Part shown: in pieces, positions 43,600 to 45,458 of the stretch
Layout of the letters: each line of letters begins with the position of its first letter
Position numbering within the stretch: the first letter of the stretch is position 1
Origin: Escherichia coli
Lineage (GTDB): Bacteria; Pseudomonadota; Gammaproteobacteria; Enterobacterales; Enterobacteriaceae
Reading direction: 5' to 3' (one strand)
DNA length: 64,000 nt
Assembly (NCBI RefSeq): GCF_022846255.1
Contig: NZ_AP025682.1
Notes under the pieces: generated by a model
Database searches by the model: none
Seen by the model: the letters and a program-made list of their open reading frames with translations, nothing else
What the model was told of the DNA's origin: nothing
Program-made: the position numbers and the translations under genes

Positions 43600-45300
43600 C
43601 GGACACTCTCGTGTAAAAAGCTACCCTGTCTATGGATATAGCGATATCCACTCATCAAGCGTGGACTGAATGATATTCAGCTCCATATGGGCGGAAACCT
43701 GGAGGATAAATACGATTTCGCCGTTGGAATCAAGGTTGTTCTGCAATATCTACCAGACTGCTTCAATTTATCTGTTTTGGCAGTGCAATAATCTTAATTT
43801 AACTATTTGAAGATGATGATATTGTCAGATGCCAGAAATTTAGTAATCTGGAGAACCGTGTCTATGATCACTAAATATTAAAGTAATAGTCGATAATTCA
43901 GTAGCACATCGGGTAATATAACGTATTGATACATAATCATATTAAAAAATTCGTGATTAAATAACATAAGAATATGTTTTATTATCATTAAAAAACCTTC
44001 TATTTCCATCATCCTTAAGATAATAAAACAGCGAATGATGGATAACTTGACCAGAAAAACAAGCAAGCATATAAAATTAAAAAATATGATTCCACTTTCA
44101 TTTTTATAAAATGGCATCGTGAAGAGCGAGTTGATAATGCTGCAATGCATCAGCGTCCTGTCCAGCAGTTTCATAAATTTTGGCAATGTTATAATAGGAG
44201 TTAGCGCGCGTTGTCGCCGCATTTACCCCACTCGCTAACGAGATCGCTTTACGATTTGCCCAAATTGCTTCCGCTATGTTGCCATTTTTCTGATACGCCA
44301 GACCCAGGTTACTAAATGCCTGTCCGTAATTGCCGTCTAATTCTGTTGCCTGTTGGAAGAGTTGAATGGCTTGCTCAAGTTGACCGGTTTTATAAACAGC
44401 TTCACCTTCGCGATTATATTTTCTTGCCAGTTGAGTATCTCCACTGTTTTGCATCGCAGGCGAAGCCGGAGCTGAAGAGTCCGTCGCAGGCATTATCACA
44501 GTGGCTAAATCCCTGACGTCTAATGTGGTGTCGTTAAAATTGGCGCTGGTAACAGAGTTGATATCTTCAAACTCGCCGTTTGGATTGAGTTTAAACACGG
44601 TCCAGATGTTCCCTCGTTTTCCAGCAGGGACACTATAACTACGTACCAGGGAGCTCCCTACATAAACAAACACTCTTGCCTTACTGGCAGAGAGATAATT
44701 ACTGTTGGGCAACCCTTTATTGCTATAGTCCTGCACGGCATAGATGTAACTTTCACCAAAATGCTTTTTGCTGATAGTGACAGTTTCTGGTCCATAGCTA
44801 TCCGTATCATCAACATCCAGATTGGCATCAGTTCCCTCTTTACTATCAAAATAGATATGTCCGCCAGGGAAGATCAAATGCGAATCAAGATCAAAAGGCT
44901 TTTCGCCCCAGCTCAAAACTACACGCATGCCATCCAGATTCGTCATCACCGGACTGATAGCATAAGTCATGCCAGCGCACGGACATTTGACCACCAGATT
45001 GGAATACCCCTCTTTTTTGACGATTAATAGAGCATCTTTATTATCAGCAAATGAAGTCCCCAAACTAATGCTGCCCGAAGTATTTGTGGTTCCAGAAACA
45101 GATTGTGCGCCATTGCGTTGCAGCGTCATCGATGCTCCTTCAATGCGTTTATCTTTCACTGTCGCACTTAAAATATCGATATTTACATCGGCCGCATAAA
45201 CGTCCGAATTTATACCCATCAGGGCCAGAGCAACCGGCAGAACAATTTTCTTCTTGTATAAATGCTTTTACAGAACGGAGAGGGGATATTTTGCCGGGCA
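43600..45300. other. AT-rich strain-specific segment between cydAB regulatory region and sucD/sdhX (boundaries approximate)
   Basis: Composition visibly more A+T-rich than the flanking core genes; carries one ORF; no integrase or flanking direct repeats recognised. Confidence 0.55.
44104..45219 (-). CDS. Hypothetical multi-domain protein: signal-peptide-like N-terminus (encoded upstream of first ATG), beta-rich N-terminal and central domains, Pro/Ser/Ala linker, three C-terminal TPR repeats
   Basis: 371 aa ORF-track ORF; TPR-like repeats recognisable in the last 110 residues; in-frame upstream codons 45267-45220 encode KHLYKKKIVLPVALAL. Confidence 0.6.
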   Translation of the reverse strand: MGINSDVYAADVNIDILSATVKDKRIEGASMTLQRNGAQSVSGTTNTSGSISLGTSFADNKDALLIVKKEGYSNLVVKCPCAGMTYAISPVMTNLDGMRVVLSWGEKPFDLDSHLIFPGGHIYFDSKEGTDANLDVDDTDSYGPETVTISKKHFGESYIYAVQDYSNKGLPNSNYLSASKARVFVYVGSSLVRSYSVPAGKRGNIWTVFKLNPNGEFEDINSVTSANFNDTTLDVRDLATVIMPATDSSAPASPAMQNSGDTQLARKYNREGEAVYKTGQLEQAIQLFQQATELDGNYGQAFSNLGLAYQKNGNIAEAIWANRKAISLASGVNAATTRANSYYNIAKIYETAGQDADALQHYQLALHDAIL

Positions 45301-45357
45301 TTATTGCGCAGAAGATGGGAAAAAAGCAGTGGGCAAACTTTTCAGATTAGTGCCCGA

Positions 45358-45458
45358 ATAAAAAAGGCCATCATAAGATGGCCAACCATGTCGAAACCGA
45401 CAGCCCTTCGCCCCTCCTGTAGAGGGAAGCGGCGAGGGCTATTTCTTATTACAGATAT
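45358..45458 (-). ncRNA. sdhX: 3'-UTR-derived sRNA SdhX (RybD) downstream of sucD, ending in an intrinsic terminator
   Basis: Region immediately after the sucD stop has a structured stretch and a terminator hairpin ggccatc-ttat-gatggcc followed by TTTTTT (plus-strand 45358-45383); assignment is by position and memory. Confidence 0.5.

Follow-up and report, generated by a model that had tools for sequence, protein, structure and literature searches.

An open reading frame (ORF) that directly follows the end of a TCA-cycle operon, at a site from which a small RNA is processed, raises the question of what the frame is, how it might be expressed and whether its presence bears on the RNA. In the 64,000-nt stretch of Escherichia coli DNA analysed here (the window), such a frame lies behind sucD and SdhX, and the initial annotation took it for foreign DNA inserted against the 3' end of the sRNA, with expression left to read-through or an unrecognised promoter. 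The reading favoured here, to which we give a probability of about 0.72 from comparative sequence evidence, is that an intact sdhX module is followed by the decaying remnant, most likely a pseudogene, of an old sucD neighbour that was recently inactivated. All of the relevant features, including sucD, its 3' UTR, the terminator and the downstream ORF, are on the minus strand, and all positions are those of the window.

sucD, the last gene of sdhCDAB-sucABCD, occupies 45459..46328 as a 289-aa ORF with the stop codon TAA at 45461-45459, and the same protein, WP_000025458.1, is annotated in matching RefSeq genomes. The 99 nt of 3' UTR directly after this stop codon on the same strand (45360..45458) are assigned to sdhX (RybD) by alignment with K-12, by fold and by the published seed. 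Folding of the 3' UTR yields -45.4 kcal/mol (z = -4.6), with a strong upstream stem-loop at 45440-45402, the seed TTCGACATGGT in a single-stranded stretch at 45395-45385, and the intrinsic terminator of SdhX and the sdh-suc operon at 45360..45383, located by terminator scan and hairpin energy. This terminator consists of a 7-bp GC-rich stem with a 4-nt loop (GGCCATC-TTAT-GATGGCC at 45383-45366; -13.3 kcal/mol for the hairpin alone) and a subsequent T6 at 45365-45360, inside the span 45358-45383 initially given for the hairpin. The stretch 45430-45417 is provisionally taken by us as the katG-pairing site, with exact coordinates that presume complementarity to the katG 5' UTR.

SdhX is an Hfq-dependent sRNA processed from the sucD 3' UTR, for which the seed UUCGACAUGGU, with the core CGACAU, and a 38-nt form have been published (Miyakoshi et al. 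2019, PMC6393394). Its known traits are RNase E processing to the ~38-nt form, Hfq binding and ackA repression. Like the known SdhX, the region in the window starts right after the sucD stop codon and contains the seed, the 38-nt core, the 7-bp stem and the U-tract, and the equivalent of the 38-nt SdhX2 (45397-45360) is unchanged relative to the published form (PMC6393394). The alignment with the K-12 sucD 3' UTR, followed from the stop codon through the last base of the T-tract, is identical save for three bases, AT to GG at 45414-45413, on the 3' side of the inner stem in the variable upstream region, and G to T at 45376, in the terminator loop. The seed, the surroundings of the processing site, the hairpin and the U-tract are all as in K-12, and homology to K-12 is lost within 4 bases past the T-tract. 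Because Rfam 15, which apparently lacks an SdhX model, gave no SdhX match at either the gathering or the E<=10 threshold, the identification rests on the K-12 alignment and the published seed, which together confirm what had been proposed from position. On this comparison SdhX is intact in the window, no part of the transcribed RNA is disturbed, and the concern that an insertion could affect SdhX finds no footing, as divergence begins only after the T-tract. SdhX would thus be expected to be produced and to function in this strain as in K-12.

The proposal of a foreign island lying against the SdhX 3' end, whose first gene would rely for its expression on TCA-cycle operon transcripts that read through and whose presence might disturb SdhX processing, finds its strongest argument in base composition, which is atypical: G+C is 43-47% over the ORF and 27-30% downstream of it versus 52-57% in the flanks (sucD and cydA). 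It is also favoured by the absence of a detected promoter in the gap and by a family that is patchy beyond the Enterobacterales, with members in Cellvibrio, Nitrosomonadales, Bacteroidota and Helicobacter at 40-56% identity. However, the gene order in other genera largely refutes it. A scan of one genome per species recovered 31 loci with relatives of the gene; sucD and the gene are immediate neighbours in this order and share a strand in Pseudocitrobacter vendiensis (76% identity), Enterobacter sp. BIGb0383 (63%), and Pectobacterium fontis and P. zantedeschiae (62%) (loci L010-L013). Directly after the gene comes cydA in the Enterobacter and Pectobacterium loci (L011-L014); the fetched locus of P. 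brasiliense (L014) begins at the gene itself, so it shows the cydA adjacency only. In Pseudocitrobacter, the sucD 3' UTR has an SdhX seed and terminator identical to those of K-12, and an intact copy of the gene begins, with AAAAGGACTTATTGATG, about 140 nt after the terminator. The site is therefore occupied in related genera, and no integrase, IS element, mobility gene or tRNA between sucD and cydA, and no flanking direct repeat, is seen in the ORF, tRNA/Rfam and annotation tables of the window. Moreover, SdhX matches K-12 through the U-tract, and the translation signals of the gene are destroyed here.

Since the same order recurs in other genera, the sucD-sdhX-gene arrangement represents conserved synteny and not an insertion against SdhX, and a foreign island at this position is quite improbable. 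Because of the patchy family distribution and the low G+C, an ancient horizontal origin of the gene is plausible; a recent insertion is unsupported. By the comparison of gene orders, the gene is an old sucD neighbour in Enterobacterales, and it is the K-12 arrangement that differs. K-12 has the same sucD and SdhX in the order sucD-sdhX-mngR(-)-mngA-mngB-cydA; it has mngRAB, and the gene is absent altogether. Whereas the U-tract is followed by the gene remnant in the window, in K-12 the convergent mngR 3' end abuts the same SdhX terminator, and only the last ~370 bp before cydA are homologous to the window, at about 80% identity.

Within the species, the gene is found in two settings. A set of 5,426 complete E. 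coli genomes contains 1,104 that carry 80% or more of the window's sucD-to-cydA interval. Of these, 546 have the junction of the window, with the gene directly after sucD, and in about 558 the gene follows mngB (sucD-mngR-mngA-mngB-gene-cydA), as in THO-015. The remaining genomes are without the gene, like K-12, some of them with a methylaspartate island near cydA.

Intact alleles occur in both settings. The THO-015 gene encodes 397 aa, with an AGGA Shine-Dalgarno sequence 8 nt before ATG and a clean signal peptide, MKKIVLPVALALLGMNAGAYA, followed by AD. In MSB1_4I the sucD-adjacent allele has AGGA and ATG and is open for 397 codons; the PGAP model there starts at an internal ATG and has 385 aa (WP_024193058.1). 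That of E69, also sucD-adjacent, has AGGA and ATG but carries an internal deletion. These two alleles show that the same sucD-adjacent allele once worked. The ORF in the window shares its reading frame with the intact orthologue WP_000725054.1 (397 aa, downstream of mngB in THO-015-type strains), is more than 95% identical at the DNA level to the intact E. coli alleles over most of its length, and lies, like the orthologues, between sucD and cydA.

The intact gene is, by prediction from sequence and model, that of a Sec-exported protein in which a signal peptide precedes two beta-sandwiches, the first transthyretin-like and the second TerD-like, with TPR repeats after them. The repeats, in the C-terminal third, exceed the Pfam gathering scores (TPR_1 51.3 bits against a cut-off of 27.8; TPR_2 42.9; TPR_12 41.9) and correspond to roughly 44448-44104 of the window; Foldseek with the full-length model returned TPR structures only. 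No family could be assigned to the N-terminal 234 residues by sequence searches of Pfam, NCBIfam and PDB, and fold comparison alone was informative. Their likeness to the calcium-binding beta-sandwich proteins of the TerD family (PDB 2qz7, 2kxt) is one of fold only, at 15-17% sequence identity, with no Pfam TerD hit at E<=10 and no calcium-binding motifs. Unlike TerD proteins, the domain here is joined to both TPR repeats and a transthyretin-like domain, in a protein predicted to be exported. A protein search returned 120 near-identical E. coli sequences and added only the JGI name 'YfaP (DUF2135)-like', which was set aside as having no Pfam support, and literature searches with CFT073/UTI89 locus tags and YfaP/DUF2135 found nothing on the gene.

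Against the intact alleles, the copy in the window is damaged at both ends. The frame was initially said to begin at about 45267 on the same strand, 90 bp after the terminator; it does open at 45267, after an in-frame TAA at 45270-45268 and 92 nt past the T-tract, and it closes at TAA 44106-44104, but nothing at about 45267 can start translation. No usable start codon is present there, and the first ATG, at 45219, is 140 nt past the T-tract. At the orthologous position, the Shine-Dalgarno sequence (45263..45266) is degraded to AGCA from the AGGA of intact alleles, and the former start codon (45253..45255) is AAG, compared with ATG in THO-015, MSB1_4I and E69. The former signal peptide (45193..45255) reads KKKIVLPVALALMGINSDVYA versus MKKIVLPVALALLGMNAGAYA or MKKIVLPVALALMGINADVYA in intact alleles, and an Ala17-to-Ser change in its hydrophobic core is specific to the start-less clade. 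At the 3' end, a 260-bp deletion, with its junction at 44126..44127 in the allele alignment, took the stop codon together with the 21 codons before it and the native hairpin terminator, and the frame now terminates after LALHDAIL and not, as in the intact form, after LAYTEKNKPSYEEAIARVKTKM. From the former start position the copy remains open for 383 codons. It is also mosaic: the segment 44939..45081 is identical to the mngB-downstream allele (THO-015) and differs by 16% from the other sucD-adjacent alleles.

These lesions bear on the possibility that the ORF is still a working gene, translated either from ATG 45219, as a 371-aa cytoplasmic beta-sandwich/TPR protein, or from the near-cognate AAG 45255 or in-frame ATT 45246. 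In its favour, the frame is open to 44104, the PGAP model in matching genomes takes the ORF body (44104..45219) as a 371-aa 'tetratricopeptide repeat protein' from the internal ATG, and the RefSeq annotation of strain 2A and FDAARGOS_1251 has a normal CDS here. However, ATG 45219 is preceded by GGCCCTGATG, without a purine-rich ribosome-binding site; a product from this codon would be without most of the signal peptide, in a family that is otherwise exported; and the C-terminal TPR helix is deleted.

The distribution of the lesions among the 546 junction-bearing genomes also speaks against a working gene. When queries of 66 nt were counted by exact match, which misses variants, the version spanning AGCA and AAG was identical in 432 of the 546, including CFT073, ATCC 25922 and 83972, while the intact MSB1_4I version was matched in only 6, and the E69 query had no match among RefSeq complete genomes. 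Measured against the intact version, Nissle 1917 and the type strain DSM 30083 have three mismatches, the same three as in FDAARGOS_536 and FHI_NMBU_03, which are identical to the window, and two sampled variants with one or two mismatches (L001, L041) retain AAG. Further lesions have accumulated: a query with a TAG stop at W332 is identical in 183 of the 546, including Nissle 1917, the same stop is present in CFT073, and a query with a +T frameshift is identical in 8, such that at least 191 of the 546 genomes, with the same 5' lesions, match the stop or frameshift queries. The gene is marked as a pseudogene by RefSeq among sampled junction-bearing strains. The lesion set of the window is thus common to CFT073, Nissle 1917, ATCC 25922, 83972 and the type strain; mngRAB has been reported, among B2 sequence types, in ST131 only (PMC9836092), and the strains that share the lesions are probably non-ST131 members of phylogroup B2 without mngRAB. 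Among E. coli genomes without mngRAB, the remnant is a common polymorphism that is already annotated.

Codon changes carry the same signal. Changes derived in the start-less clade number 15 synonymous and 20 non-synonymous, versus 24 synonymous and 8 non-synonymous among those private to the two intact alleles (odds ratio 4.0, Fisher p = 0.013), in a small sample of 8 start-less and 2 intact alleles. The non-synonymous to synonymous ratio is therefore raised in the start-less clade, and purifying selection there is not comparable to that on the intact alleles. Pairwise dN/dS is 0.11 between the intact alleles, 0.19-0.87 within the start-less clade and 0.14-0.24 between the window and other alleles. 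The values below 0.3 would favour a working gene, but much of this divergence is older than the lesions. Strict neutrality is estimated to give a non-synonymous to synonymous ratio of roughly 3 or more, and the observed 1.3 is below it, so the decay is either recent or still incomplete, or older polymorphism dilutes the sample. Overall, the substitution pattern indicates relaxed constraint on the start-less alleles, and a still functional gene in the window, whether transcribed from a weak promoter near AATAAT 45305-45300 or by read-through, is rather unlikely.

The spacer between the terminator and the former start codon (45256..45359) was analysed by allele alignments, promoter scans and folding. 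Consensus scans of 45360-45220 on this strand found no sigma-70-like site at 9/12 or 8/12 matches, which bears out the initial view that the gap contains no convincing promoter, and a looser scan (8/12, with at least 3 in the -35) found none in any E. coli or Pseudocitrobacter allele. A -10-like AATAAT is present at 45305-45300, and a sigma-70 promoter on it was rejected as there is no usable -35 at 16-18 nt. The motif recurs as TAATAAT or GATAAT before the start codon in E. coli alleles and other genera, a point on the side of a working gene. In the Enterobacter and Pectobacterium orthologues, by contrast, ATGACA/ATGACT-17-GATAAT occurs at a conserved position, about 100 nt ahead of the start codon. 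A sigma-E promoter on the conserved TCTGA of the block TAATCTGAAAAGT (45349-45337) was likewise rejected, since it has no GGAACTT-like -35 and its distance to the sole candidate differs by 9 nt between alleles. In the window, whether transcripts arise by read-through or from an own promoter is of little consequence, because the message is not normally translatable and the ORF is most likely a pseudogene; with the Shine-Dalgarno sequence, the start codon and the 3' end lost, the question of expression largely falls away.

The block TAATCTGAAAAGT is common to the E. coli alleles and is kept in two upstream alleles that are otherwise diverged (about 73% identical). Such conservation might suggest that the untranslated stretch past the terminator acts at the RNA level, as part of a longer SdhX isoform or of a read-through transcript affecting cydA regulation, and nothing more direct points in this direction. 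Folding finds no significant structure in the spacer (z = +0.24), Rfam gives no match, the terminator is good, and about 2.5 kb separate it from cydA; an RNA-level role is very improbable.

Under the favoured reading of an intact sdhX module and a decaying remnant, most sdh-suc transcripts would stop at the SdhX terminator, and the few that arise by read-through or from a weak promoter would be untranslated and probably cut short by Rho. The remnant would no longer be properly translatable owing to the changes of AGGA to AGCA, ATG to AAG and Ala to Ser in the signal peptide, and, with the 260-bp deletion, both the C-terminal helix and the terminator of the gene would be gone. The frame would still be open in the window because the decay is recent. 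A different consequence of the conserved gene order, which we consider very improbable, would be that the frame is translated at a low level from AAG 45255, ATT 45246 or ATG 45219 on transcripts extending past the SdhX terminator, the order sucD-sdhX-gene being a functional coupling. If there were such low-level translation, a beta-sandwich/TPR protein would be expressed in step with the TCA-cycle operon, and if there were such coupling, it would act through partial read-through of the SdhX terminator and account for the order across genera.

The significance of the locus lies mostly in annotation hygiene, as the remnant is an ordinary polymorphism among strains. What RefSeq gives in hundreds of such E. 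coli genomes as a 371-aa 'tetratricopeptide repeat protein' CDS is most likely a pseudogene whose real start has been lost. Work on SdhX in K-12 should transfer to these strains, since the sRNA and its terminator are unchanged. Study of the gene is better directed at the intact form, which is predicted to encode an uncharacterised exported protein that joins TPR repeats to a TerD-like domain and is conserved beside sucD in several genera.

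The decayed TPR gene that directly follows the sucD/SdhX terminator on the minus strand is a mosaic. Over 143 bp of this ORF (window 45081-44939, minus strand), the sequence is identical to the allele of E. coli THO-015, which is located downstream of mngB, and differs from other sucD-adjacent alleles at 23 positions (16%). The mosaic indicates recombination between the sucD-adjacent and the mngB-downstream locus types.

In strains having mngRAB and then the TPR gene, the SdhX terminator module occurs a second time after mngB, in diverged form. In THO-015, this second copy lies just 3' of mngB (locus L002, 2352-2396), its counterpart in the window being 45397-45337, and consists of a hairpin, GGTCATC-TCCG-GATGGCC plus T5, with a folding energy of -12.9 kcal/mol. 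The block 3' of this hairpin, TAATCTGAAAAGT, is also found in the window, 3' of the genuine SdhX terminator, and the SdhX seed is not kept in the second copy. Because of this module and the real SdhX terminator, a hairpin copy occurs at either end of mngRAB, which offers a hint as to how this block came to be inserted or relocated.

The interval between sucD and cydA is a hotspot, in which still other contents are found. In O169:H41 F6326-C1, an island with methylaspartate-mutase and ammonia-lyase genes adjoins cydA, and genes for an RtcB-like protein, LysR, cobO, fumarate hydratase and a dicarboxylate symporter are immediately 3' of the intact TPR gene in MSB1_4I. In the window, the stretch from the ORF to cydA is very AT-rich, with 27-30% G+C over ~1.2 kb (42900-44100, minus strand), and THO-015-type strains have it too. 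Homology to K-12 within it is confined to the final ~370 bp before cydA, at just 80% identity, and therefore lineages differ to an unusual degree in the cydA regulatory region. Rfam matches elsewhere in the window, namely three tandem copies of the REP-type naRNA4 (51811-52071, plus strand), the CpoB/ybgF thermometer (34606-34744, minus strand) and seven clustered tRNA genes (32979-33679, minus strand), are all expected in this chromosomal region.

Orthologues following sucD in Enterobacter and Pectobacterium (L011-L013) use GTG as the start codon and are preceded, ~100 nt upstream, by a conserved sigma-70-like promoter, ATGACA/ATGACT-17-GATAAT, whereas the E. coli and Pseudocitrobacter alleles are devoid of it. 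In MSB1_4I, PGAP places the start at an internal ATG (L042, 1572-2729; 385 aa), while with the AGGA and ATG located upstream the product has 397 aa and a complete signal peptide; the annotation of this intact gene seems to have been influenced by the start-less majority allele.

The SdhX of the window differs from that of K-12 in the loop of its terminator, by G->T (45376, minus strand), and in the inner stem, whose 3' side has AT->GG (45414-45413, minus strand), the K-12 version of these positions being present in MSB1_4I and in another E. coli strain, E69. The AT->GG change gives the stem extra base pairs, and the whole UTR folds at -45.4 versus -41.3 kcal/mol. Opposite this change is the stretch 45430-45417, which we take to be the putative katG-pairing site of SdhX and which the change might make less accessible.
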